Origin: a virus
Reading direction: 5' to 3' (one strand)
DNA length: 41,474 nucleotides
Virus record (IMG/VR): IMGVR_UViG_3300005980_000002
The position numbers were made by a program, and so were the translations under genes. Below are positions 1,167 to 40,661 of the stretch, in pieces (positions within the stretch are counted from its first letter, which is position 1; the number at the start of each line of letters is the position of its first letter). The notes under the pieces are model-generated. The model worked only from the letters and a program-made list of their open reading frames with translations. It ran no database searches and was not told the origin of the DNA.

Positions 1167-1465
1167 CCGCCGCGAACCTCCCGGACCTCAACGCCATCCA
1201 GTCACGAGCAGAGACCAACCTCTACCTCGGCAAGACTGCCACGCAAGACGAGGCAGCCGATACGCTCGCCCTCCTCGCCCTTGTGCGGGAACAACAGGCC
1301 AAGCTGGACGCTGTAGCGATCCTCGCTGAGACGTGGCGCTACAAGGGCGAATTCGGTTGGGGAGCGTGGCAGGAAGGCCACGGCCCCGATGAGACCGGAG
1401 CCGCCTTCGACCATGCGGCAGACTCCATCCGTGCCGCGCTCACCGCAACGGAGGGGCCGGCATGA
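1163..1465 (+). CDS. hypothetical protein
   Basis: Internal ATG of ORF 1142..1465 in an ATGA overlap with the upstream stop. Confidence 0.65.
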   Translation: MTAANLPDLNAIQSRAETNLYLGKTATQDEAADTLALLALVREQQAKLDAVAILAETWRYKGEFGWGAWQEGHGPDETGAAFDHAADSIRAALTATEGPA

Positions 1466-1827
1466 GCGGGATGGCGGAAGTTCTCGCGGCGCACGCGTTC
1501 GTTGTACTCGACTTAGATCAGCGTGGTGGCGCATGTTTCTGCGGGGATGAGTTTAAGTGGCGTCTCCCGACGATCCACAGCAGAGTGAGGGCATTGTCAG
1601 AACACCAGGCCTCGATGCTCACCGCTGCGGGGTTCGGACCGGTCAAGGAAGCAGCGGCGATGGCGCTGGAAGAAGCGGCGGCTGTCATGGACAAGTCAGC
1701 TGAAACTATGGTCGCGGTTTGGGCCGAGATGCCGATGACTGCCCCGGCGGCGGCGACACTCTCCGCAATCCGTCACGAAGCCCGACGAGTCCGCGCCAGT
1801 GCCGCTGCTGTGCGGGGTGAAGGGTGA
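1462..1827 (+). CDS. hypothetical protein
   Basis: ORF track 121 aa; ATGA overlap with the upstream gene. Confidence 0.7.
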   Translation: MSGMAEVLAAHAFVVLDLDQRGGACFCGDEFKWRLPTIHSRVRALSEHQASMLTAAGFGPVKEAAAMALEEAAAVMDKSAETMVAVWAEMPMTAPAAATLSAIRHEARRVRASAAAVRGEG

Positions 1828-2897: not shown

Positions 2898-3686
2898 GTG
2901 AGGGTGACCAACTGCGCCTGTGACGACCAGCCCGAGGGTATCTACCTTTGCCCGGGATGCCGGGACATCCTCCTCGACGACCTGCGGAGGGTGGAGTCCA
3001 CGGTCGAAGCGATCTGGGCGTCCGCGGCCCGCATGAACGTCGGGAACGGGTCCGTAGGATCCTCCGGGCACTCCTCCCCCAGCGAACCCACGAACGCCAG
3101 GGCGTACGACACCGGCCGCACCCTGAACGTTATCCTCACCGGCTGGGCCCGCGCCCTCGGGCACACCGAACCCCACGCTGTGAAGGCCGCCGCCGTGCTG
3201 CTCGCACAGATCCGCGAGGTACGGGAGCAGGAGTGGGCGCCGGTGTTGAAGCAGGAACTCCGGGAAGCGTTGACGGACTGCGACCGGGCAACGGACCGGG
3301 CAGCGCCGAGGATCTTCGCCGGGATCTGCCCGACTGAGGAGGGCGGGGTGGAGTGCGGGACGCCCGTGTACGCGCCGGAGGGGAAACCTGAGGCGCGGTG
3401 CCGGACGTGCGGGGCGACGTGGGATGTGACGGACTGGCGGGAACGCGCTCTGGTCGCGGCCGGCCCCGCGACGGCGACCGCGGCGGAGCTCACCCGGATC
3501 CTCTCCGACCCGGTCCGGGCGTTGGTGTTCCCGCAGAACAAGGTGGCGGTGTGGGTGAACCGGGGGAAGCTCGCCCCTATGGGGGTCCGTGACGGGCGGG
3601 CGGTGTATCAGGTGCGGAAGGTCCGTAATCTGTGGGAGAGAGCGCAGGCCGTGTCCGCGGCCCGACGTGAGAGGCTGGCAGCATGA
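2898..3686 (+). CDS. putative DNA-binding protein with Cys-pair (zinc-ribbon-like) motifs
   Basis: ORF track 262 aa with a GTG start (alternative GTG at 2904). Contains CPGC near the N-terminus and C-x7-C...CRTC in the middle. The C-terminal third resembles excisionase/AlpA-type HTH proteins. Preceded by CGGAAC/GGAACTTCC motifs. Confidence 0.65.
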   Translation: MRVTNCACDDQPEGIYLCPGCRDILLDDLRRVESTVEAIWASAARMNVGNGSVGSSGHSSPSEPTNARAYDTGRTLNVILTGWARALGHTEPHAVKAAAVLLAQIREVREQEWAPVLKQELREALTDCDRATDRAAPRIFAGICPTEEGGVECGTPVYAPEGKPEARCRTCGATWDVTDWRERALVAAGPATATAAELTRILSDPVRALVFPQNKVAVWVNRGKLAPMGVRDGRAVYQVRKVRNLWERAQAVSAARRERLAA

Positions 3687-4548: not shown

Positions 4549-4620
4549 TGGTTACTAGCTCAACGGCAGAGCAACGCACTGTTAATGCGTCGGTTCGTGG
4601 TTCGAATCCACGGTAGCCAG
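4549..4620 (+). tRNA. tRNA-Asn (anticodon GTT)
   Basis: Hand-folded cloverleaf: 7-bp acceptor stem (one G-U), D stem GCTC/GAGC, anticodon stem ACGCA/TGCGT with loop CTGTTAA, 5-nt variable loop, T arm CGTGG-TTCGAAT-CCACG, discriminator G. CCA is not encoded. Confidence 0.9.
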
Positions 4621-4694
4621 CTGATCGAAAGACGCCGACCAACGATCGAGAACGCGGCCGATCCAGTAGATCACCCCAGTGAAGGAGAGCGGCT

Positions 4695-13455: not shown

Positions 13456-13818
13456 ATGGCACGTACCCTCGTACCTGTTACCGACCTGACGGCCGCGGTG
13501 TCCACCGCGGACCCGGCAGGCACCACCGCCGACCCAACCAACGGGCACACCATCACCGGGGCCCGCCCCGAGGTGCTGGTCCTGCGGGTCAAGAACACCA
13601 CCGCCGGGGCCCTGAACGCGATCCTCCGCGCCGGTACCTTCCCGCTCGCGGAATCCTCTGGGCAGGGCGACCTGACCGTGTCCGTGGGCGCCGGCGCGAC
13701 CGTGTTCATCGGCCCGGTCGAGTCCGCCCGCTTCCTGCAGAACGACGGCTCCGTGAGCCTGGACCTGCAGGCCGGGTTCACCGGCACCGTCACCGCGCTC
13801 CGGACGAACCGCCGATGA
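13456..13818 (+). CDS. hypothetical virion-module protein
   Basis: ORF track 120 aa, with GGAG upstream. Confidence 0.65.
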   Translation: MARTLVPVTDLTAAVSTADPAGTTADPTNGHTITGARPEVLVLRVKNTTAGALNAILRAGTFPLAESSGQGDLTVSVGAGATVFIGPVESARFLQNDGSVSLDLQAGFTGTVTALRTNRR

Positions 13819-14177
13819 GCGCCGCCGAGGAGAAGGCAACCGTCCACATCCTCGGCGAGGGAGGCGGCGTGTTCGAACTGTCCCTGCCCCTGCACGAGAG
13901 TGTCGCGGACCGTCTGGCGAAGGGTCACCTCCGCCGTGTCCGCCCGGACGGGTCCCCGTACGTGGAGGGCGAACGCCCCGAGGGTGTCCCGTCGCTGCCG
14001 GAGTCCCGTCCCGCCCTGAACGCCGTGAAGGCCGAATGGGTGGGCTGGGCTGTGGTGCAGGGACTGTCCCCGGACGAGGCTGAGGCGCTGACGAAGGCGG
14101 ATCTGATCGAGCGCTTCGGCGCCGGCCCAACGCCTGGGGATGATCCGGTCGAGACGCCAGGAGAGTCAACAGAGTAA
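13815..14177 (+). CDS. hypothetical protein with a C-terminal HeH/SAP-like segment
   Basis: ORF track 120 aa with an ATGA overlap; contains ...LSPDEAEALTKADLIERF... Confidence 0.65.
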   Translation: MSAAEEKATVHILGEGGGVFELSLPLHESVADRLAKGHLRRVRPDGSPYVEGERPEGVPSLPESRPALNAVKAEWVGWAVVQGLSPDEAEALTKADLIERFGAGPTPGDDPVETPGESTE

Positions 14178-14184
14178 GATGTGC

Positions 14185-14267
14185 CTAGTTAGGGACCCGT
14201 CAAGGATTGCCTGCGGTGCTGTCACCGCGCTCCTTGAGTGGATCGGCCCTTGAGGGTCCCTAACTAG
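14185..14267. repeat. Long inverted repeat (about 20-bp stem with one bulge) enclosing a second 6-bp hairpin; probable bidirectional terminator
   Basis: 14185-14205 (CTAGTTAGGGACCCgTCAAGG) pairs with 14248-14267 (CCTTGAGGGTCCCTAACTAG). Inner hairpin: GCGGTG-CTGT-CACCGC (14213-14228). Confidence 0.85.
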
Positions 14268-14374
14268 CCGCTTTGCCGAATACAGGTGGGGCCTACGGGA
14301 ACAACGTCAGGCTTATACGACAGAACTTGGAATAATTGCGCCCACCTTTTTCGCGCCCCTAAAGCTGTGGCACG

Positions 14375-14423
14375 GTTCTAGTTGGAAGCGCTTCTACTAG
14401 AACGAAGCATCGAATGTTCTAGT
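14375..14423. promoter_or_regulatory. Three copies of GTTCTAGT (two direct, one inverted); the first two form an imperfect 29-bp palindrome
   Basis: GTTCTAGT at 14375-14382 and 14416-14423, and ACTAGAAC at 14396-14403. The centre of the palindrome is GAAGCGCTTC. Confidence 0.4.
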
Positions 14424-14456
14424 GAACTGGGACGGGATCACGCCCTGCCTCTGCAC

Positions 14457-14810
14457 TCACGAACGGACCTGCTCCCACGCTACATCGCGACCGGCTTTTG
14501 CTTCTTCCAGCCTCTCCTTCGGGGTTTTGGGGATGTCGTCCACTGTCGTGAAATCGACTGATCTGAACAGATCGTCAACGGATACGCCAAGGATCTGTGC
14601 AAGTGCGAGAAGTTCGGCGGCCCTGAAGGACCTGTTGCCAGATTCCATCATGTACATGACTTGGCGAGCCACCTGGCGCTTGTTCAGGACCTGAGCGAAC
14701 CGAGCGCCTAATTGGGTCGCGCTCATGCCGATTGCATTGCGGTAAAGCTTGACGTTGGCACCTATGGTGCGTTCAACCAACTCTGTGTCAATAATCATAG
14801 GACTAATCAT
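14457..14810 (-). CDS. XRE/Cro-C1-type helix-turn-helix transcriptional regulator
   Basis: ORF track 117 aa. HTH core ...IGMSATQLGARFAQVLNKRQVARQVMYMMESGNRSF.... Third codon positions are visibly AT-richer than in flanking genes. One of only two minus-strand genes (with 20605-20913) in the 4.7-27.2 kb virion/lysis block. Confidence 0.85.
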   Translation of the reverse strand: MISPMIIDTELVERTIGANVKLYRNAIGMSATQLGARFAQVLNKRQVARQVMYMMESGNRSFRAAELLALAQILGVSVDDLFRSVDFTTVDDIPKTPKERLEEAKAGRDVAWEQVRS

Positions 14811-14835
14811 ATAGGAACTTCCCTAGTGTTCCTAT
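14811..14835. promoter_or_regulatory. Palindrome ATAGGAAC-N9-GTTCCTAT abutting the XRE start codon; candidate operator
   Basis: Arms at 14811-14818 and 14828-14835. Contains GGAACTTCC (14814-14822). Confidence 0.45.
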
Positions 14836-14866
14836 GGATTCCTACCCAACTTTTGAGGAGGCCCGC

Positions 14867-15319
14867 ATGGCTGGCTTGTTCGGCAATTTCGTCATCCCTG
14901 ACGCCCTCGCCGCCCCCGCGGACCTCGCCGCCTGGACATCCACGACCGCCCCGACGAACGCCGCCGCCCTGCTGCGGGAAGCTACGTCCATGGTCCTGTC
15001 CGCGACGAAGGGCGCCTACTACGCGGTCGACCCGGCCACGGGCCTCGCAACCGACCCCGTCGTGTTGAAGGCGCTGCAGGACGCGACGTGCATCCAGGCC
15101 GCGGCGTGGGCGGCCCTCGGCATCGACCCGAACCTCGGCGGGGTTATCACCGCCACTGTGGCGTCCCAGAAGTCCATTGGATCCGCGCACATCACCCTCG
15201 CCGACGCCGCGCAAGCCGCAACGGCGAAGGAGCGCGCACTGAATGGCCTGGTTCCCGCCGCGCAGCGCAAACTCGCGCAGAACAACCTCCTCGCCTCCAA
15301 CGTCTGGATCTACGGGTGA
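14867..15319 (+). CDS. head-to-tail adaptor/connector protein
   Basis: Internal ATG of ORF 14834..15319, with GAGGAGG upstream. Size and position are right for a gp6-like adaptor. Confidence 0.65.
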   Translation: MAGLFGNFVIPDALAAPADLAAWTSTTAPTNAAALLREATSMVLSATKGAYYAVDPATGLATDPVVLKALQDATCIQAAAWAALGIDPNLGGVITATVASQKSIGSAHITLADAAQAATAKERALNGLVPAAQRKLAQNNLLASNVWIYG

Positions 15320-17947: not shown

Positions 17948-20659
17948 ATGTCCAGCCAAGGCCCCACAACGACTGGCTCCATTGACGCGAAACTCACCGT
18001 CGATGATTCCGACTTCAAAAGGGGCATGGCCGAGGCGAAGGCTGAAGCTAAAGAGGTTGGCGCGCTCGCCCCCGAGGTGAAGGTTGACGCTAACGTCGGC
18101 CCCGCGCTAGCTAAGCTCGACGCTGTCGCCATGGCTGAACATCGGTTGGAAGCAGCGCAGCGGGCGAAGCTGAACACGTCCGGCGCGCTGTCGGTCGCTG
18201 AGATGCGTTACGAAGCGGTCACGACGAAGTCGGGCCGCACTGATTTGCAGGTTGCTGCGGCTGAGGAAGCCCTCGCGCGAGCGCGCCGTGCCGACATGGT
18301 CGCAACCGAAAAAAGCACAGTGGCGACCGCCGCGCTCAACGTCGCGAAAGCCGAATCGGTACGCAAGTCAGCCGAAGAAGCCGCAGCGAACGACGCCGAA
18401 GCCGAGTCAACGAAGCGCGCCACGCAAGCGAACAACCAGCGCGTATCCGCCATCGGCGTCCTCATCGCACTGGCGCCCGCCGTCCTGTCCGCTGCCGCAC
18501 CCATCGCTGCTGCCGCAGTCGGTCTAGGTGCGGCATTCGGCGTCATGGGCGTCAGTGGGGTCCTCGCCATCAAGGGCATCAAAGACGCCATGCAGGTCGG
18601 CGACACTGTCGGCAATACATACGCTTCCGGCCTGACCGTAGTCAAGGGCAACCTAGACCAGCTCGCAGGGACCGCCGCTACCGGGATGCTCTCCGCATTC
18701 TCGTCAGCCATCGACGGCATCAACGGCCGCATGCCGTTCCTCTCCCGCATGACGGGCGAGTTCTCCGTACAGCTTGGGCAGATCGGCGGTACTGCGCTAC
18801 GGGGCGTCCTCGACGGGCTCCAGCAGATGATGCCCCTCTTGCAGGCCGGCGGAAATGAACTTTCCAAGTTTGTGACATGGCTGTTCAGCTTCAACGGCAC
18901 AAATGGGTTCAACCAGTTCATCTCCTACGCGGTAGAGAACCTGCCCTCCGTGATGCACCTCATCGAGAACCTGGTGACCACTGCGGGGCATATCCTGTCC
19001 GCGTTCGCGCCCATGGGGCCAGTGGTGATCGGCGCACTGTCGGGGATCTCCGACATCCTCAACGCGCTGCCTCTCCCGGTCCTCGCCGGATTGGTAACCA
19101 CGGCCACGGCGGTCGCCCCCGCCATGAACATCGCCGGATCGGCGATCGCCATGTTCGGCATCAAGACGCAGCTTTCCATCCCCGTCGTGGGCCTTATCAC
19201 CGCGGCACTGTCCGGGCTAGGAATGATGGCAGCTACTGCCGCGCTGGGCACGGACCAGGGCACCGCAGCGATGACGAGCTACGGGGACGCGGTCCAGCGG
19301 GACAACGGCCTGATCGGCGAGAACGTCCGCCTACAGGCTGCACACGCGGCGACGACCAAGGAAATGCGGGACGCTGCCGATTCCCTCGGCCTGTCCACCA
19401 TTACCGTGCTTAACGCCATGCTGGGGGAACCTGCCGCGATCTCCACCACCAACAACGCGATGGCGACGGCAATTGACCGGCGTGAACAGTTGCGCCGGGG
19501 TGACGAGAACCTGACCGACACATCGCTTCGCCTGAAGCACGCGAAGGACACCCTCACCAACGGGATCCAGCAGAATACCACCGAGATCAACAACAACATC
19601 GACGCCTACCACGCCTACAAGGGCGCCACGGACGCGGGCACGGGCGCCACCAACATGCAGACGACGGCACTCCAGGCACAAGCCGCCCAGTACGGCGTCA
19701 CGGTATCCCAGTATCAGGCCGCAACGGACGCGCAGACGAAAACCGGAACGACAACCGCTGACACGACCTTGAAGATGCGGTTGCAGAGTGACGCAGCGGG
19801 CCTGTTAAAAATGGCGTGGGATGAGCTGAACGGCAAGACCATCAGTGCCGCGCAGGCTCAGAACGCCTTTGATTCGTCACTGGCGAACATGGGCGACCAC
19901 ATCAGCGCCACCGGCAAGAAGATCACATTCACCACGACGAGTATCACGGACATGTCGGCTGCGTCCGTTGCATTGCGCGGGGAACTGATCGGCCAGGTCA
20001 CCGGCATGGAAAAGGTCATTGAGGCTGACGGTGGACTCCAGAACGCCACGGCCCAGTCGAAGCAGAAATACGCTGAGATGCGGGAGCAGATCATTGCGAA
20101 TGCCGTGGCGCACGGCGTGAACCGCGACGCCGCTGAGGCTTACATCAGCTCCATCTATAAGGTGCCCCCAGCGGTCACCACGCGGATCGAGATCGACACG
20201 GCAGCGGCGAACGCGAAACTTGCAACGACCAAGGGCATGCTGGAAGCCCTCCGCGACAAAACCATCTACGTTGACGTGCAACGATCCGACTCAAACGTGG
20301 ATAACACGGGTGGCGCGGGGCATGTCCAGCCGGTCAAGTACAACGCAGCCGGTGGAATGGTCAGCTATCTCGCCAGCGGCGGCTTTCCGGGCGGCCCCAA
20401 GGGGACGGACACCGTTCCTACGTGGCTCACCCCCGGAGAGATCGTCATCAACCGGGCGTCAGTGCAGTCCCTAGGCGCTGGCAACCTGCTCCACGCCAAC
20501 AAGACCGGGCAGTGGCCCGGGCAGGGAGCCCCCCAGCCGGTGGCGCCTGTTGTGCATGTCTACGTCGGGAACGAACAGCTCGACTCCCGCATGTACACGG
20601 TCGCTCAGGGGGCCATCGGTTCGGCAGGGCGAGACGCCGGGAGGCGCCCGGCCCGCTGA
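17948..20659 (+). CDS. tape measure protein
   Basis: ORF track 903 aa. Ala-rich coiled-coil N-terminus and central hydrophobic segments; position after the chaperones. Confidence 0.9.
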   Translation: MSSQGPTTTGSIDAKLTVDDSDFKRGMAEAKAEAKEVGALAPEVKVDANVGPALAKLDAVAMAEHRLEAAQRAKLNTSGALSVAEMRYEAVTTKSGRTDLQVAAAEEALARARRADMVATEKSTVATAALNVAKAESVRKSAEEAAANDAEAESTKRATQANNQRVSAIGVLIALAPAVLSAAAPIAAAAVGLGAAFGVMGVSGVLAIKGIKDAMQVGDTVGNTYASGLTVVKGNLDQLAGTAATGMLSAFSSAIDGINGRMPFLSRMTGEFSVQLGQIGGTALRGVLDGLQQMMPLLQAGGNELSKFVTWLFSFNGTNGFNQFISYAVENLPSVMHLIENLVTTAGHILSAFAPMGPVVIGALSGISDILNALPLPVLAGLVTTATAVAPAMNIAGSAIAMFGIKTQLSIPVVGLITAALSGLGMMAATAALGTDQGTAAMTSYGDAVQRDNGLIGENVRLQAAHAATTKEMRDAADSLGLSTITVLNAMLGEPAAISTTNNAMATAIDRREQLRRGDENLTDTSLRLKHAKDTLTNGIQQNTTEINNNIDAYHAYKGATDAGTGATNMQTTALQAQAAQYGVTVSQYQAATDAQTKTGTTTADTTLKMRLQSDAAGLLKMAWDELNGKTISAAQAQNAFDSSLANMGDHISATGKKITFTTTSITDMSAASVALRGELIGQVTGMEKVIEADGGLQNATAQSKQKYAEMREQIIANAVAHGVNRDAAEAYISSIYKVPPAVTTRIEIDTAAANAKLATTKGMLEALRDKTIYVDVQRSDSNVDNTGGAGHVQPVKYNAAGGMVSYLASGGFPGGPKGTDTVPTWLTPGEIVINRASVQSLGAGNLLHANKTGQWPGQGAPQPVAPVVHVYVGNEQLDSRMYTVAQGAIGSAGRDAGRRPAR

Positions 20660-20913
20660 CCCACGAGGTAGTCGACGGCGGCGGCGAGCTTGTAGAAGCC
20701 CGCCGCCAGCCCGACAACCCCAGCGGCGGCGAAGATCGCCCCGAAGATGATCCACCCCATGCCGGGGTGTTCCGCGGCACCGTACTTGCTGACGACTTCG
20801 GCGGCGTTCAATCCCGCGCCGATCACGTTCATCACCCCACCGAGTGCGGTGGCGATGAATCCGAAGGCGATCAGGACGGCGGACGAGCCGGGCTTGTTGT
20901 TCATGTACCACAC
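20605..20913 (-). CDS. small integral membrane protein (2-3 TM segments)
   Basis: ORF track 102 aa, GTG start (alternative ATG at 20904). GC3-rich in its own frame. Hydrophobic segments SSAVLIAFGFIATALGGVMNVIGAGL and GMGWIIFGAIFAAAGVVGLAAGFY. Overlaps the tape-measure 3' end by 55 nt on the opposite strand. Confidence 0.7.
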   Translation of the reverse strand: MWYMNNKPGSSAVLIAFGFIATALGGVMNVIGAGLNAAEVVSKYGAAEHPGMGWIIFGAIFAAAGVVGLAAGFYKLAAAVDYLVGQRAGRLPASRPAEPMAP

Positions 20914-27272: not shown

Positions 27273-28037
27273 TTAAGCGCCCTTCAAGAACTGCAGCACC
27301 CGGGCGGGTTGGAATGCGGACGGGTCTCCATGTTCACCCTGCACGGGCACGACCGTCACGTCTACACCTGCTGCCTTGGCGGCCGCCGCACACACATCCG
27401 TGTTCGACGCTTTCGGAACCGTTGTATCAGCCGGGGATGAGAAAAAGATGGCGCGGAACCCGGGCGGGTAGGCCGGCTGCACAGGAGAGAGGGCCGTGGG
27501 CGCGCCACCAGGCCACGCCTGCCGGAACGTGGGGAACTTATCCGTCATAGATGCGAGGTTACACACCGGGTACACCCCGATGAACGACTTCGCAGGGACC
27601 CGCCCGACGAGCTGCAACGCGGCAAGGCCGCCCATCGACTGCCCCAGCAGGACCACATCATCTGACCCGGTCTTAGCCTCAGCCCACGCGTAGAGGTCCT
27701 CGTAGGCTTTCACTGACGCCGGACTCCCCCACGCGTTCCCGGCACCGTCCGACGTCGCGAGACTGTACCCGGCGCCCAGGAGGGCTTGACGCACGCCGGC
27801 CTGAAGGTCGCCGGTCAGCCATTCGTCAACATCTCCCCCGTGACCGTGCACGGCCATGACGAGTGACCCGTTCGGGTGCGGGGGGACGATGAGGCCGACC
27901 TTGTCCGCGCCGATGACTGCCCTCGTCTCACCGGGCGACGGCACAACTTTGGGCGTTGGGGTGGCGGGGTTCGTTGCGGGTGCGGTGGAACACCCCGCCA
28001 GGAGTAGGCAGAGCAGCAAACCGGCACGTAATCCCAT
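27273..28037 (-). CDS. secreted lipoprotein alpha/beta-fold hydrolase (esterase/lipase-like)
   Basis: In ORF 27273..28199, start chosen at the internal Met giving MGLRAGLLLCLLLAGC (signal peptide plus lipobox LAGC). Motifs: nucleophile elbow GQSMGG, HGHGGD, and C-terminal GEHGD. Confidence 0.8.
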   Translation of the reverse strand: MGLRAGLLLCLLLAGCSTAPATNPATPTPKVVPSPGETRAVIGADKVGLIVPPHPNGSLVMAVHGHGGDVDEWLTGDLQAGVRQALLGAGYSLATSDGAGNAWGSPASVKAYEDLYAWAEAKTGSDDVVLLGQSMGGLAALQLVGRVPAKSFIGVYPVCNLASMTDKFPTFRQAWPGGAPTALSPVQPAYPPGFRAIFFSSPADTTVPKASNTDVCAAAAKAAGVDVTVVPVQGEHGDPSAFQPARVLQFLKGA

Positions 28038-28184
28038 CGCCCCAGCATAGAGCCTCAGGCTTTTCTCTGAGAGGTTTTTGGGAGGATGAGCCCCGGCAGG
28101 GCCTTGTAAGTTCCGTGCAGTCGGGTTTTTCTCCGCATAGTTCCCCACGGAACTTCCCCAGTCCGACACGCCGAACCCACGCGC

Positions 28185-28228
28185 GAAAAAGCCCGCCATT
28201 CCGGGGAATATCTCCAGAACGGCGGGCT
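28185..28228 (-). terminator. Intrinsic terminator reading on the minus strand, immediately 3' of the tRNA-Val fragment
   Basis: On the minus strand, AGCCCGCC ... GGCGGGCT is followed by TTTTT. Plus-strand arms are at 28190-28197 and 28221-28228. Confidence 0.6.
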
Positions 28229-28301: not shown

Positions 28302-29441
28302 TCACGCGGGTTTTTCGAGGTTCAGGGAGGATTCTGGGAGGACCACGGCGGTGTGGGCGCTGATGAGGGAGTCCATGCGGGCGGCCACGTCGGAGAGTTC
28401 CTGGTCGAAGAGCCCGGCGTAAACGTCGAGGGTGATCTTCGCGGACGCATGGCCGAGCATCCTTTGGACGGACTTCACCGAGGCCCCGGAGTGGATGGCC
28501 AGGGACGCCGCGGTGTGCCGGAGGTCGTGGACCCACAGCCCGGCGGGCAGCCCTGCTTTGGTGACTGCGGGATCGTAGTCGCGGCGCTTGAAGTTGTTCG
28601 ACCGCATGGCCTTTCCCCGCGGGGTTGGGAAGAGCAGGTCATCCCGCCGCTTCCCCAGAAGCCGGGGCGCGAGCCTGCCAATGATGAATGCCGTCACCGG
28701 CACGTCCCTTTCCTGCCCTCCCTTCGGCGGGCCGATGAGCATGCGGCCCTCGACGTCGGTAATGGACCGGGACACCCGGATCCGCTGGCGCCGCAGCTGG
28801 ACATCCTTCGCCCGCAGTTCGGCGGCCTCCCCGAACCGGAGCCCAGTGGTCGCGAGGAACCAGATGAGGTCACGGTAGTGCGGGCTGATCGCGTCGGCCA
28901 GGGCCTCGACTTCGGGAATGGTCAGGTAGATATGCTCCCGCTTCACCCCTTTGGGCAGGTTCACGCCTTTGGCCGGCGAAGCGGTGATCCTGCCCTCGTC
29001 GACGCACCAGTTCAGAAAAGACCGGAACCGGCCGTAGATCGTGTCGACGGTACGGGCGGCCTTGTCCATCCCGGACACCCAGGCCTGAATGTCGGCGCGG
29101 GTGATGTCGGCGAGGATCCTCCCGCCCCAGTACGGCTTGATCGTGGCGCGGACGTCGGAGCGTGTCGCGGCGAGCGTGGAGGGTTGCAGGTGGACCTGGG
29201 TCTCCACCCAGCCGTCGATGAGGTCCCGGACGTAAACCCTCCCCAGGTCCCGGGACACGTACGTCCCGGACCGCTGGTTGTGTTCGACCCAGACAAGGTG
29301 GGCCCGGGCTGAGTCTTTGGACGTGAAGGATTTCTTCTTCTCCGCGCCGGCCTCAACCCAGACCGCCTGCCACCGTTTGCCCTTCCCGTAGAGCGGGGTG
29401 CGGGTCTTGTCCTTCCGCACCCACCGGTCATCGACACGCAC
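28302..29441 (-). CDS. int: tyrosine integrase
   Basis: ORF 28302..29708, with start taken at the in-frame GTG 29441 that overlaps the upstream gene's TAG (alternative ATG at 29483). C-terminal signature ...HDLRHTAASLAIHSGASVKSVQRMLGHASAKITLDVYAGL... Confidence 0.9.
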   Translation of the reverse strand: MRVDDRWVRKDKTRTPLYGKGKRWQAVWVEAGAEKKKSFTSKDSARAHLVWVEHNQRSGTYVSRDLGRVYVRDLIDGWVETQVHLQPSTLAATRSDVRATIKPYWGGRILADITRADIQAWVSGMDKAARTVDTIYGRFRSFLNWCVDEGRITASPAKGVNLPKGVKREHIYLTIPEVEALADAISPHYRDLIWFLATTGLRFGEAAELRAKDVQLRRQRIRVSRSITDVEGRMLIGPPKGGQERDVPVTAFIIGRLAPRLLGKRRDDLLFPTPRGKAMRSNNFKRRDYDPAVTKAGLPAGLWVHDLRHTAASLAIHSGASVKSVQRMLGHASAKITLDVYAGLFDQELSDVAARMDSLISAHTAVVLPESSLNLEKPA

Positions 29442-29749
29442 TAGATCAGTTCGTGCCCGATGAGGCGTTGCATGATCAGCCATTCGTCGACGTCGAGGGC
29501 GGTCAGGTAGGCCCGCACGTCGGCCGGGGCGACGTTCAGGGCCCGGGCGATCGCGTCGATCTGCCGTTCGTGTCGGGCGGCGTTCAGGAACGCTCTCGGT
29601 GCGATGAGGCGCCGGGCCGCCCAGGCCGCTGCTTCCCCGCAGCGGATCGGGCAGTCGGTCCGGTAGTAGGTGTGTGCCCGTGCGTGCATCTTGGATGAAC
29701 GGTCGCAAGCGGTTTCAGTCAGTCCCCCCAGGGGCGTTTCAATCAACAT
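29441..29749 (-). CDS. hypothetical protein with a possible HTH
   Basis: ORF track 102 aa. Contains ...QIDAIARALNVAPADVRAYL... and is co-oriented between the repressor and integrase genes. Confidence 0.6.
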   Translation of the reverse strand: MLIETPLGGLTETACDRSSKMHARAHTYYRTDCPIRCGEAAAWAARRLIAPRAFLNAARHERQIDAIARALNVAPADVRAYLTALDVDEWLIMQRLIGHELI

Positions 29750-29862: not shown

Positions 29863-30360
29863 TTACTCCGGAACTGGATTTTCGCGGTTTATGCGGGTTC
29901 GATAGTTATTGAATCGATATGAAAGCTCGGATATTAGCTCCTCGTCAGTGAGGAGGTATGCCCGTCTTACCGGCTCTCCTCCACCGCTGGACACCTGGGA
30001 GTCAAGGATCTTCCATGAGACTTCGCCGCCGCCCTCCTGCATGGTCTCAAGAGTGACGGATTCCACCGGCGTGTGATCGGCGCTATCGAGCACGTCTTTG
30101 ATGGCTCCGTACCGCCAGCCGAGGGCTTCCTCGACCTTGTTTTGGTTGATTTCCCAGGCTACGCGGGTACCCCTTTCCATGGAGGCGAGGGTCTTGGTAT
30201 CCACGCCGGAGAAGGTAGCGAAGGGTTTCTGTGAGAACCCCTTTTGAAGGCGCGCTTTTTTGATTAGCTTGCCGATGGCTTCGAGTGCTTCCGATTCGTT
30301 CACTTGCTCATGGTGTCGCACAACTTTTGCACTTACAAGTGACCCGTTTTGCGGAACCAT
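29863..30360 (-). CDS. XRE-family repressor (candidate immunity repressor)
   Basis: ORF track 165 aa. HTH ...ARLQKGFSQKPFATFSGVDTKTLASMERG.... Divergent from a cro-like gene. Low-GC codon usage. Confidence 0.8.
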   Translation of the reverse strand: MVPQNGSLVSAKVVRHHEQVNESEALEAIGKLIKKARLQKGFSQKPFATFSGVDTKTLASMERGTRVAWEINQNKVEEALGWRYGAIKDVLDSADHTPVESVTLETMQEGGGEVSWKILDSQVSSGGGEPVRRAYLLTDEELISELSYRFNNYRTRINRENPVPE

Positions 30361-30405: not shown

Positions 30406-30493
30406 AACTACATCCTTGGCATTATGGGTCTTGTTCCGATCTGTTATGCACTGGTCCTTGCTAACCTCCCCAGTGTTCCGTATAGTTACGCAT

Positions 30494-30763
30494 ATGAACA
30501 CACAACGAAAACCCCGCGGCCCCGTCCAGGGGAGAAACGACCCCGACCCGAAGAAAACCGGGCAGAACCTCCGCGAAGCCCGGATCGCCCGCGGCGTGAC
30601 CCAGCGTGAGATGGCGGAAGCCCTCGGCTACTCCGCGCACAACGGCGTCACCCATCTGGAGGCCGGCACCCGGATCCTCTCCGACACGGACCTCCGGGTC
30701 GCGGCCGACTTCCTCGGCATCGCCCCCTCCGTGATCCGTCAGTCCGTGAAGGCCGCCCGATGA
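30494..30763 (+). CDS. Cro-like XRE HTH regulator
   Basis: Internal ATG of ORF 30416..30763; contains ...LREARIARGVTQREMAEALGYS... Confidence 0.75.
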   Translation: MNTQRKPRGPVQGRNDPDPKKTGQNLREARIARGVTQREMAEALGYSAHNGVTHLEAGTRILSDTDLRVAADFLGIAPSVIRQSVKAAR

Positions 30764-32784: not shown

Positions 32785-32806
32785 GCCGTTTTTGACCAGA
32801 AGGGTG

Positions 32807-32837
32807 TGGAACTATACGTAACTTACGGTATGCTGTA
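32807..32837 (+). promoter_or_regulatory. Promoter-like element (TGGAAC-N16-TATGCT) of a conserved family
   Basis: Shares GGAAC, ACGTAACTT and GGTA(T/G)GCTGTA blocks with 40562-40594. Lies upstream of gene 32907. Confidence 0.45.
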
Positions 32838-32906: not shown

Positions 32907-33287
32907 GTGACGATCACGACCCATTCTAAGCCCCACCAGTACCTCTTCAACAAGGACCTCGCCGCCCAGGTCATCCACGCCGAGGTCCAGCACTTCGCCG
33001 CCGGCGCGAACCCCAACGGCGTCTCCGAAGACGAACTGCAGACCCTCACCCGCCGCATCTCCTGGCTCGTGGACCGCGACCTCAAATGGACCGACGTGGA
33101 CACCCTCGTCGCCTACGCCAACGAGTTCCGCACCATCGAGAACGGCACCCACCCCAACCTCCTCACCAACGCCGCCGGCACGGTCGATAACACCGCCCAC
33201 CTCCGCGACTCCCTGCTGCTGTCCATGTTCTGGGAGATCACCATGATCCTCGGCTCCATGGCCGCCCGGTGGGAGTGGTCCGCATGA
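32907..33287 (+). CDS. hypothetical protein
   Basis: ORF track 126 aa; GTG start with AGGAG upstream. Confidence 0.65.
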   Translation: MTITTHSKPHQYLFNKDLAAQVIHAEVQHFAAGANPNGVSEDELQTLTRRISWLVDRDLKWTDVDTLVAYANEFRTIENGTHPNLLTNAAGTVDNTAHLRDSLLLSMFWEITMILGSMAARWEWSA

Positions 33288-40130: not shown

Positions 40131-40576
40131 GGGAGTGGGTGGTGACGGTCCCGGCCCCGGTGGTGAAGCCGGTCCGGAAACGCAAGACCGGGAAGCTGTT
40201 CCAGCGGACGGCGCTCCTGAACTCCAACGACAGGGACCATTGGCGGGTTACGCACCCGATCAAGGCGGGGTGGAGGGCGAACGCCGCCGCGGCCGCTGAG
40301 GGTGCGGGCCTGCCCCGGGGTTTGGGGCGGGTGGAGGTCACCGGCCTGGTGGTGAAGCCTCGCGCCGGCACGTATGACGCGCAGAACTTTTACCCGACGG
40401 CGAAGGCGGTTGTGGATGGGTTCATTGATCACGGCATGTGTGTGGATGATTCGAATGAGTTTGTGGTGGGCCCGTTTTTGTTCCCGGGTCCGAAGGGTGC
40501 GACGGCTTTGATTGTGACGGTCCGGGAGATCGCCGCGCCGGAAGAAACGACACCAACTTTACGGAACATCACGTAA
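40127..40576 (+). CDS. rusA: RusA-like Holliday junction resolvase
   Basis: ORF track 149 aa; contains ...YDAQNFYPTAKAVVDGFIDHGMCVDDS... Confidence 0.7.
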   Translation: MREWVVTVPAPVVKPVRKRKTGKLFQRTALLNSNDRDHWRVTHPIKAGWRANAAAAAEGAGLPRGLGRVEVTGLVVKPRAGTYDAQNFYPTAKAVVDGFIDHGMCVDDSNEFVVGPFLFPGPKGATALIVTVREIAAPEETTPTLRNIT

Positions 40577-40594
40577 CTTCTGTGGTAGGCTGTA
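40562..40594 (+). promoter_or_regulatory. Promoter-like element CGGAAC-N18-TAGGCT, paralogous to 32807-32837
   Basis: Shares ACGTAACTT (40571-40579) and GGTAGGCTGTA (40584-40594) with the 32.8 kb element. Overlaps the rusA stop. Confidence 0.45.
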
Positions 40595-40661
40595 AACAAC
40601 ATGAAGGAAGCCCCGGCGATGCGTGAACATCCCGGGGCCTTGACGGAAAGGAAGTTCCGCA

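Follow-up and report, generated by a model that had tools for sequence, protein, structure and literature searches.

The low-GC cassette and its flanks

We analysed a stretch of viral DNA (IMG/VR record IMGVR_UViG_3300005980_000002, 41,474 nucleotides, hereafter the window) and, within it, a low-GC cassette lying between two genes for head-tail proteins. The window is 41.5 kb long with ~65% GC; its gene layout is that of a temperate siphovirus-type actinophage and its virion gene block is on the plus strand. The insert is firmly identified as a composite moron, made up of an orphan small RNA (sRNA) gene of the DUF3800-IV family and an apparently leaderless, probably autoregulated gene for a regulator of the XRE (Cro/C1) helix-turn-helix (HTH) class. 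The features of the locus, with the evidence on which each was placed, are the following.

13815-14177, plus strand: 120-aa head-tail connector-like gene, the left flank (PHROG 2322); 3 nt separate its stop from the sRNA
14178-14842, no strand: inserted low-GC cassette, ~665 bp (GC profile and comparison with relatives)
14175-14180, plus strand: TAAGAT, a -10-like hexamer at the insertion junction that overlaps the TAA stop of the upstream gene (resemblance to chromosomal copies)
14181-14271, plus strand: DUF3800-IV sRNA (Rfam RF02963), a three-way junction closed by a long stem (cmscan)
14285-14355, plus strand: hairpin GGTGGGGCC..GCGCCCACC followed by TTTTT, weakly terminator-like, 14 nt after the sRNA (sequence and fold)
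14375-14423, no strand: three exact copies of GTTCTAGT/ACTAGAAC, two direct and one inverted (the sole exact copies in the 41.5 kb)
14457-14810, minus strand: XRE/Cro-C1-fold gene, longest open reading frame (ORF) 117 aa, probable product 113 aa from ATG 14798 (ORF, homologues and fold)
14806-14811, minus strand: TATGAT, a -10-like hexamer 7 nt upstream of ATG 14798 (sequence; layout in homologues)
14811-14835, no strand: palindrome ATAGGAAC-N9-GTTCCTAT, a putative operator over the -35 region and spacer (perfect arms)
14853-15319, plus strand: ribosome-binding site GAGGAGG and 150-aa head-tail adaptor gene with ATG 14867, the right flank, outside the insert (PHROG 541)

The cassette was confirmed as real, inserted, compositionally foreign and reverse-oriented. 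A preliminary description of this DNA had pointed to its low GC content, to AT-rich third codon positions in its gene and to the rarity of reversed genes among the tail genes, and all three observations hold. GC is 0.50-0.56 over 14200-14900 compared with 0.62-0.74 in the flanks, GC at third positions (GC3) of the ORF is 0.63 compared with 0.80-0.94 in five neighbouring genes, and apart from the cassette gene the tail region has a single reversed gene, of 99 aa on the minus strand at ~20605-20904. The phage's own CI-like gene has a GC3 of 0.62.

The comparison with related genomes that the same description proposed gave a clear answer, as the cassette is missing from ~70 related phage contigs. 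The 150-aa adaptor is encoded at 51-81% identity in 60 IMG/VR loci and relatives of the upstream 120-aa gene are found in 38. None of the ~70 IMG/VR relatives has an XRE gene between the two flank genes, and where both flank genes are present the gap is at most ~120 bp, a statement that applies to close relatives, since one more distant locus (L077) has a gap of ~741 bp. The relatives carry a GC-rich hairpin of ~30-35 nt at this junction, e.g. GTGGGCGGCG..CGCCGCCCAC followed by ..CTTTAGGAGG-ATG (14/14 junctions inspected), which is probably an intercistronic stability or attenuation element. Homology of the window to these relatives ends at the TAA stop at 14177 and restarts at ~14843, at about CCCAACTTTTGAGGAGG; thus ~665 bp took the place of the hairpin. 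Deviant composition is therefore combined with absence from the same junction in close relatives, as is characteristic of a moron. The junction hairpins of the relatives that were inspected (L004-L073) have no T-run. The window hairpin at 14285-14346 has GTGGG/CCCAC ends in common with them and might be a remnant of the replaced element.

The left inverted repeat is a DUF3800-IV sRNA

An inverted repeat at the left end of the cassette had been listed in the preliminary description. The repeat is present, with perfect 14-nt arms at 14185-14198 and 14254-14267, but it is neither an operator nor a plain terminator: it is an sRNA of family RF02963. In a cmscan search with Rfam 15 the plus strand matched the model over its full length (positions 1-91 of 91) with 89.0 bits against a gathering score of 60.7 (E 6e-16). 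The window RNA agrees with the family at every conserved junction and loop nucleotide, retains 34 of the 36 model pairs, and folds over its 91 nt into the family structure with a minimum free energy of -53.2 kcal/mol (z = -6.5). It has the same three-way junction as other members, the GGAUYGCC, UGCUGYC and CCUUNAGUGGAUCGGCCC elements and the Rfam-defined strand. It differs from them in the sequence of its outer stem (CTAGTTAGGGACCC), which is unique, and in its setting, a phage late operon in which a convergent DUF3800 gene is lacking and an XRE gene stands in that place. The preliminary description had regarded the XRE cassette as the most likely seat of something undescribed in the window. 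That claim rests on the wrong component, because the left palindrome is a curated structured sRNA; what is new here is a member of a known RNA family in a phage context without DUF3800 and with a new partner gene.

Further members were gathered with degenerate core patterns, which yielded 2 in IMG/VR, 18 in GTDB genomes (all Actinomycetota) and 12 in metagenomes. A strict literal core pattern found no match in IMG/VR, and megablast and blastn searches of the phage collection, with either the region or the window RNA as query, returned nothing relevant. Compensatory changes occur at 25 of 35 pairs in a 27-sequence alignment of members. G-U pairs (16) outnumber A-C mismatches (3), which favours the plus strand, and nearly all chromosomal members have a -10-like TAnnnT or CAnnnT ~7-10 nt upstream on the RNA strand. 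The G-U to A-C ratio and these upstream hexamers thus support the Rfam strand and independent transcription. In the window, TAAGAT at 14175-14180 abuts the start of the RNA model and, judged by sequence, may be the sRNA's own promoter element, in which case transcription would start at ~14186-14187; a sigma-70 scan of the window did not call it. The RNA copy at locus L097 has a clear intrinsic terminator at the position that matches the window hairpin at 14285-14355.

The canonical RNA-DUF3800 module and its absence from the window

Our locus set comprised the 31 RF02963 loci above the gathering score plus the window, 32 in all. At 25 of these 32 loci a convergent DUF3800 gene abuts or overlaps the 3' end of the RNA. 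The canonical partner gene encodes ~250-280 aa on the opposite strand, with its stop within ~15 nt of the RNA 3' end or overlapping it, and the product belongs to DUF3800 (PF12686, 26-31 bits against a cut-off of 21). Its GC3 is below that of housekeeping neighbours, and it is the sole conserved neighbour of the RNA. RNA and DUF3800 gene, a convergent and abutting pair with no other conserved partner, therefore make up a self-contained module of ~1.1 kb. Fragmented or truncated DUF3800 genes lie beside intact RNAs at L127 (8938-9777) and L120 (2814-3347), so the RNA can outlast a decaying protein gene. The DUF3800 RNA motifs were described as eleven unrelated structures linked to one protein domain (Weinberg 2017, PMC5737381). 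In papers after 2017, DUF3800 is termed only RNase H-like, and the links drawn are with defence systems, mobile elements, retrons and CRISPR accessory genes.

The window lacks a DUF3800 gene. None was found among 25 Pfam-scanned proteins, in the gene table, by six-frame tblastn or with a six-frame hidden Markov model of the family. A DUF3800 remnant in the 185-bp spacer was considered and rejected, as tblastn with word size 2 and blastn gave only matches at noise level (e.g. PVFGKAA against PIFGMAA). There is no minus-strand ORF of at least 30 aa between 14178 and 14456. Nor is a type I or type III toxin-antitoxin system supported, there being no DUF3800 or other candidate gene in the cassette. 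PADLOC gave no match for the DUF3800 protein.

Several neighbourhoods of family members drew our attention in passing. The DUF3800 module at L113 (1883-5922) abuts hsdS/hsdR-like type I restriction-modification (R-M) genes, and the chromosomal orphan RNA at L139 (10083-13850) lies beside DEDD-type exonuclease-like and N6-methyltransferase-like genes (both by eye); these neighbourhoods suggest defence-island settings. The chromosomal modules at L105, L109, L110 and L111 are within 1-2 kb of tRNA genes.

Orphan RNA copies recur in phages

Seven of the 32 loci have no DUF3800 gene: the window, L093/L118, L097/L142, L134, L137 and L139. The orphan copies outside the window, together with a sub-threshold copy in mycobacteriophage Omega, are arranged as follows.

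L093/L118: Mycolicibacterium houstonense prophage; RNA 15 nt past a Terminase_7 terS gene, with a tRNA downstream
L097/L142: flanked by head genes; the copy has a good -10 and its own intrinsic terminator
L134: ~620 nt upstream of a same-strand terS-like gene (by eye)
L137: adjoining an SSB-like gene
L139: chromosomal
Omega (L149, NC_004688.1): RNA-like core at L149 3475-3556, which is 96425-96506 of the record, between gp195 and an 'undetermined' tRNA; unannotated

The Omega copy scores 42.9 bits (E 7.5e-6), below gathering. A divergent RNA core of this kind, with a tRNA 22 nt further on, is present in unannotated DNA of 18 deposited mycobacteriophage records (among them Omega, LittleE, Courthouse and Thibault). 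No RNA copy in a phage setting, whether in the window, in the three further above-gathering lineages or in the sub-threshold Omega-like copy, lies beside a DUF3800 gene, and a cognate DUF3800 protein is encoded by none of 50,697 phage records. The inner helices of the window RNA are of the chromosomal type (GCGGUG/CACCGC and UCC/GGA), unlike those of the other phage copies, which have common variant helices (GAGSUG.. and CCG/CGG), a difference that suggests later capture of the window copy. L093 also has a tRNA match with a 59-nt insert (1450-1578, minus strand), which follows the orphan RNA at a distance of ~190 nt; the match at L118 (4897-5025, minus strand) is identical.

The XRE gene, its promoter and its homologues

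The preliminary description had placed a 117-aa Cro/C1-type HTH gene on the minus strand. The ORF is present and the XRE fold is supported, but Pfam cut-offs are not reached (HTH_31, 22.0 against 27 bits; HTH_3, 20.8 against 23 bits) and the start is probably ATG 14798, because homologues begin there (Met5 of the window ORF). The fold assignment is secure as far as profile and model comparisons go. A family profile matched C.BclI in the PDB (E 5e-6); the AlphaFold model, with a mean confidence (pLDDT) of 84 overall and >90 over approximately residues 10-80, has a five-helix HTH and a C-terminal helix; and Foldseek gave target-normalised TM scores of 0.76-0.86 to C.BclI, C.AhdI, SinR and BldD, with ClgR also among the closest. 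These best profile and Foldseek matches have small size and a palindrome in their own promoter in common with the cassette protein. In contrast to the C proteins, SinR and BldD, the cassette protein has no R-M genes nearby and an extra C-terminal helix, and identity is only 20-25%. C genes commonly lack a leader, and the sites of SinR resemble GTTCTYT. A PADLOC match of the XRE protein to PDC-M69A (E 3e-5) was judged a generic HTH match. A type II antitoxin of the HigA/HipB kind or an R-M controller is not supported, there being no adjacent toxin or R-M genes and the neighbours being head-tail genes.

The family is tiny: a search of 1.84 billion representatives gave only 7 proteins at E<=1e-10. 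Of nine homologues from the profile search, four (P0018, P0153, P0023 and P0009) have precomputed, unflagged PF01381/PF13560 matches. The closest homologue, P0002 (80% aa identity), is encoded divergently from an adaptor gene on a 997-bp ENA contig (L002), which is uninformative about the RNA because it ends 12 nt past the XRE stop. At L092 the homologue is reverse-oriented between a DUF7426 gene and an HNH gene in the tail module of another phage, and at L052 and L143 the homologues are reverse-oriented inside structural or structural-like gene blocks; at L144/L145 the homologue is in an early operon and at L146/L147 it is a repressor beside an integrase. These varied settings therefore describe a mobile regulator family that is often moron-like. 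Rfam scans found no RNA at the homologue loci L092 and L052 or in the wide-gap relatives L075/L077. The HNH_3 endonuclease gene directly beside the XRE homologue at L092 (1245-1865, minus strand) hints at homing-endonuclease-associated mobility of such inserts. A 101-aa Cys/His-rich gene, which is not in the window, follows the XRE gene co-directionally at L143 (1839-2144, plus strand).

We found no Shine-Dalgarno sequence before ATG 14798. TATGAT stands 7 nt upstream of it, a -10-like hexamer has the same spacing in L002 (TATACT), and the layout is comparable at L052 (TACAAT), L143 (TACGAT) and L092 (AGCAAT), so that it occurs in 5/5 homologues. Together these observations argue for a leaderless XRE mRNA. 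The promoter-like element is overlapped by a palindrome, a layout that fits a self-contained, autoregulated moron. The palindrome, which the preliminary description had listed, has perfect arms, and its core, AGGAAC-N9-GTTCCT at 14813-14833, is conserved in the sole close relative, L002. The longer 9-mer GGAACTTCC is not, since L002 reads GGAACTTAC and keeps only the AGGAAC/GTTCCT arms; the spacer and the surrounding intergenic DNA have diverged. Conserved arms around a diverged spacer are the signature of an operator and point most simply to autoregulation. The XRE gene is thus probably autoregulated through the predicted operator AGGAAC-N9-GTTCCT.

Between the two genes lies the GTTCTAGT cluster. 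The three copies noted before, at 14375-14423, are the only exact ones in the whole window, compared with a composition-based expectation of ~0.5. The first 29 bp (14375-14403) form a near-perfect palindrome, GTTCTAGT-N13-ACTAGAAC, with an inner GAAGC|GCTTC, and the third copy is at 14416-14423. The cluster is a candidate protein-binding site or weak terminator of the XRE gene; it leans towards the former because the RNA hairpin is unremarkable (z -1.6). CTAG, which had been called unusual for this genome, is indeed depleted, with 29 occurrences in the window compared with 133 expected from base composition, and 6 of the 29 are inside the cassette.

A proposed role for the cassette

We favour, tentatively and at a little under an even chance, the reading that the cassette is a composite moron of two convergent units, an autoregulated XRE repressor and an orphan sRNA that acts in trans and is aimed at DUF3800 proteins. 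The sRNA, whose sequence is of the chromosomal type, was probably captured from a bacterial sRNA/DUF3800 module without its DUF3800 gene. It lies on the plus strand, in the same sense as the late operon; read-through of late transcription would produce it, and a start from TAAGAT at the junction might do so too. With all conserved junction and loop nucleotides kept, it should still be recognised by its family partner, presumably a DUF3800 protein of the host or of resident elements, and would then serve as an antidote to or decoy against DUF3800 modules. The idea of action in trans rests on the family nucleotides being kept in the absence of a cis partner and on the recurrence of orphan copies in phages. 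The XRE repressor would be expressed from its own promoter as a leaderless mRNA, would bind its operator and regulate itself, and would do so independently of the late operon, e.g. in the lysogen.

Phages are known to carry RNA mimics of defence RNAs: pseudo-ToxI repeats act against ToxIN, and RNA anti-CRISPRs are solitary repeat units. The likeness is that, of a host module of protein and RNA, the phage has the RNA half alone. The window RNA differs in being a single structured unit and not a repeat array, and toxicity or defence by DUF3800 and its interaction with the RNA are hypothetical. The cassette also resembles morons of the lambdoid type, which are inserts in late operons with transcription of their own, in its deviant GC, its absence from close relatives, its position between late genes and its promoter-like and terminator-like elements. 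It differs from them in having an sRNA gene and a regulator instead of a fitness or exclusion protein, and its expression in the lysogen is only predicted.

Several points weigh against this reading. Pairing of the RNA with an XRE gene is unique to the window, no other RNA locus having an XRE gene of the cassette family, and a functional link between the two units is therefore unsupported. In some canonical loci the DUF3800 ORF overlaps the variable outer stem of the RNA; regulation there may work by antisense pairing in cis, and a heterologous RNA from a phage would be unable to imitate it. The genome of the lysogen with the L118 orphan yielded no further match to the core pattern, and hence no sign of a canonical module in that host. 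The spacing of TAAGAT is atypical, since chromosomal copies have the hexamer 7-10 nt upstream. The hairpin at 14285-14355 is no more stable than shuffled sequences (z -0.9) and was missed by a terminator scan. An antidote or decoy role is argued by analogy, and in the literature found the function of DUF3800 proteins and RNAs is unassigned (PMC5737381, PMC10910872, PMC7736814, PMC13594972).

A broader proposal, possible but doubtful, is that phages of actinobacteria have repeatedly taken up the RNA of the module without its protein gene, as a decoy or antidote in trans that would disarm host DUF3800 proteins, and that the window combines a chromosomal-type RNA with an XRE regulator. If true, this would amount to RNA-based counter-defence and would give a first functional handle on the DUF3800 RNA motifs. 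The strict convergent pairing in chromosomes and the RNA-only phages lead to a testable hypothesis with two components, in which the protein is regulated or neutralised by the RNA. A cultivable system is offered by the Omega-like mycobacteriophages of M. smegmatis, with their sub-threshold RNA copy. Morons of phage late operons can be sRNA genes, which protein-centred annotation overlooks, as in the unannotated region of Omega.

Alternative explanations

The first alternative, which we regard as unlikely, centres on the XRE gene, as a second repressor expressed in lysogeny that confers heterotypic immunity or exclusion, or as one that regulates promoters with the dispersed motif GGAASTTCC; the RNA would then mainly terminate transcription in both directions or insulate the cassette. 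The gene has its own promoter and operator layout, and among its homologues are the repressor by the integrase at L146/L147 and reversed copies in structural modules without any RNA. GGAASTTCC is in 20-fold excess with 5 of 6 sites clearly intergenic, and the site in the XRE promoter has ACTRGGGAAGTTCC in common with the one beside the alpha/beta-hydrolase gene. A plain terminator, however, would not fit a 91-position covariance model at E 6e-16 and keep every loop nucleotide, and the lack of conservation of the GGAACTTCC 9-mer in L002 also speaks against this alternative.

Somewhat less probable again is a cis-acting RNA, an element for processing, stability or attenuation of the late transcript that has taken over the role of the ancestral hairpin and sets the ratio of head to tail expression. 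A hairpin does stand at the relatives' junction (14/14 inspected), the readable phage copies (window, L093/L118, L097 and Omega) have the same sense as the genes beside them, which they directly follow or separate, and the L134 copy is upstream of its same-strand terS-like gene. Yet the ancestral hairpin is ~30 nt without sequence constraint, whereas the insert keeps the exact family junction and loop sequence, as do chromosomal copies with their own promoters, and the other phage copies are at unrelated positions (after terS, between head genes, beside a tRNA).

We consider it improbable that the cassette is a decaying remnant, a captured module that lost its protein gene so that the RNA is a non-functional passenger beside an unrelated XRE moron. 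Decayed DUF3800 genes do occur by intact RNAs in chromosomes (L120 and L127) and the pairing with an XRE gene is found in the window only. Against this, the 185-bp spacer shows no trace of DUF3800, the RNA, at 89 bits, is intact and close to consensus, and orphans recur in at least 3 other independent phage lineages with compensatory stem changes, which argues for selection on the RNA alone.

A new functional pair, in which the XRE protein replaces DUF3800 as partner or controls RNA output via the GTTCTAGT sites, recalls the canonical layout in its convergence and in the GTTCTAGT cluster between the genes, but is very improbable given that no other RNA locus has such an XRE gene, that the Rfam-scanned loci L092 and L052 and the L077/L075 controls have no RNA and that XRE domains are DNA binders.

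The dispersed motif and other features of the window

Other features of the window are the following.

28302-29708, minus strand: tyrosine integrase (gene content of the window)
29863-30360, minus strand: CI-like HTH protein (Pfam-scanned protein set)
30416-30763, plus strand: Cro-like HTH protein (Pfam-scanned protein set)
4549-4621, plus strand: tRNA-Asn (GTT), upstream of the packaging genes

The separate CI/Cro-like pair is present where the preliminary description had put a repressor/cro pair, and duplication of the phage CI or Cro was ruled out as the origin of the XRE gene, as neither has close paralogy to the cassette protein. DnaB, SSB and HNH-AP2 genes are also encoded. We found no deposited phage closely related to the window phage; capsid identity to Streptomyces phage phiSASD1 is 50%.

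The motif that had been described as dispersed and contained in the XRE palindrome is confirmed in the form GGAASTTCC, with 6 exact sites in the window (2880, 14814, 28149, 32746, 32765 and 40650) compared with 0.28 expected, one of them in the palindrome. Five of the six are clearly intergenic, and the site at 28149, which has ACTRGGGAAGTTCC in common with the XRE promoter, falls within ORF 27273-28199 in its longest version. A pair of copies spaced by 19 nt is upstream of the gene at 32907, and the CI/Cro intergenic region has none.

The alpha/beta-hydrolase gene at 27273-28199 (minus strand) adjoins the integrase on the lysogeny-side strand and may be another moron; a GGAAGTTCC site and a GTTCC-N4-GGAAC palindrome are close to its 5' end. 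Two similar promoter-like sequences of the form GGAAC..ACGTAACTT..GGTAnGCTGTA, with a TAnGCT -10, at ~32795-32835 and ~40561-40600 suggest a shared early promoter type. Looked for in relatives without the XRE gene, the double GGAAGTTCC site has a single match in IMG/VR, on an unrelated viral contig of 52% GC (L148). There, at 3213-3240, GGAACTTCCCT occurs twice, 19 nt apart, and the same 11-mer is in the XRE operator of the window, possibly by coincidence.

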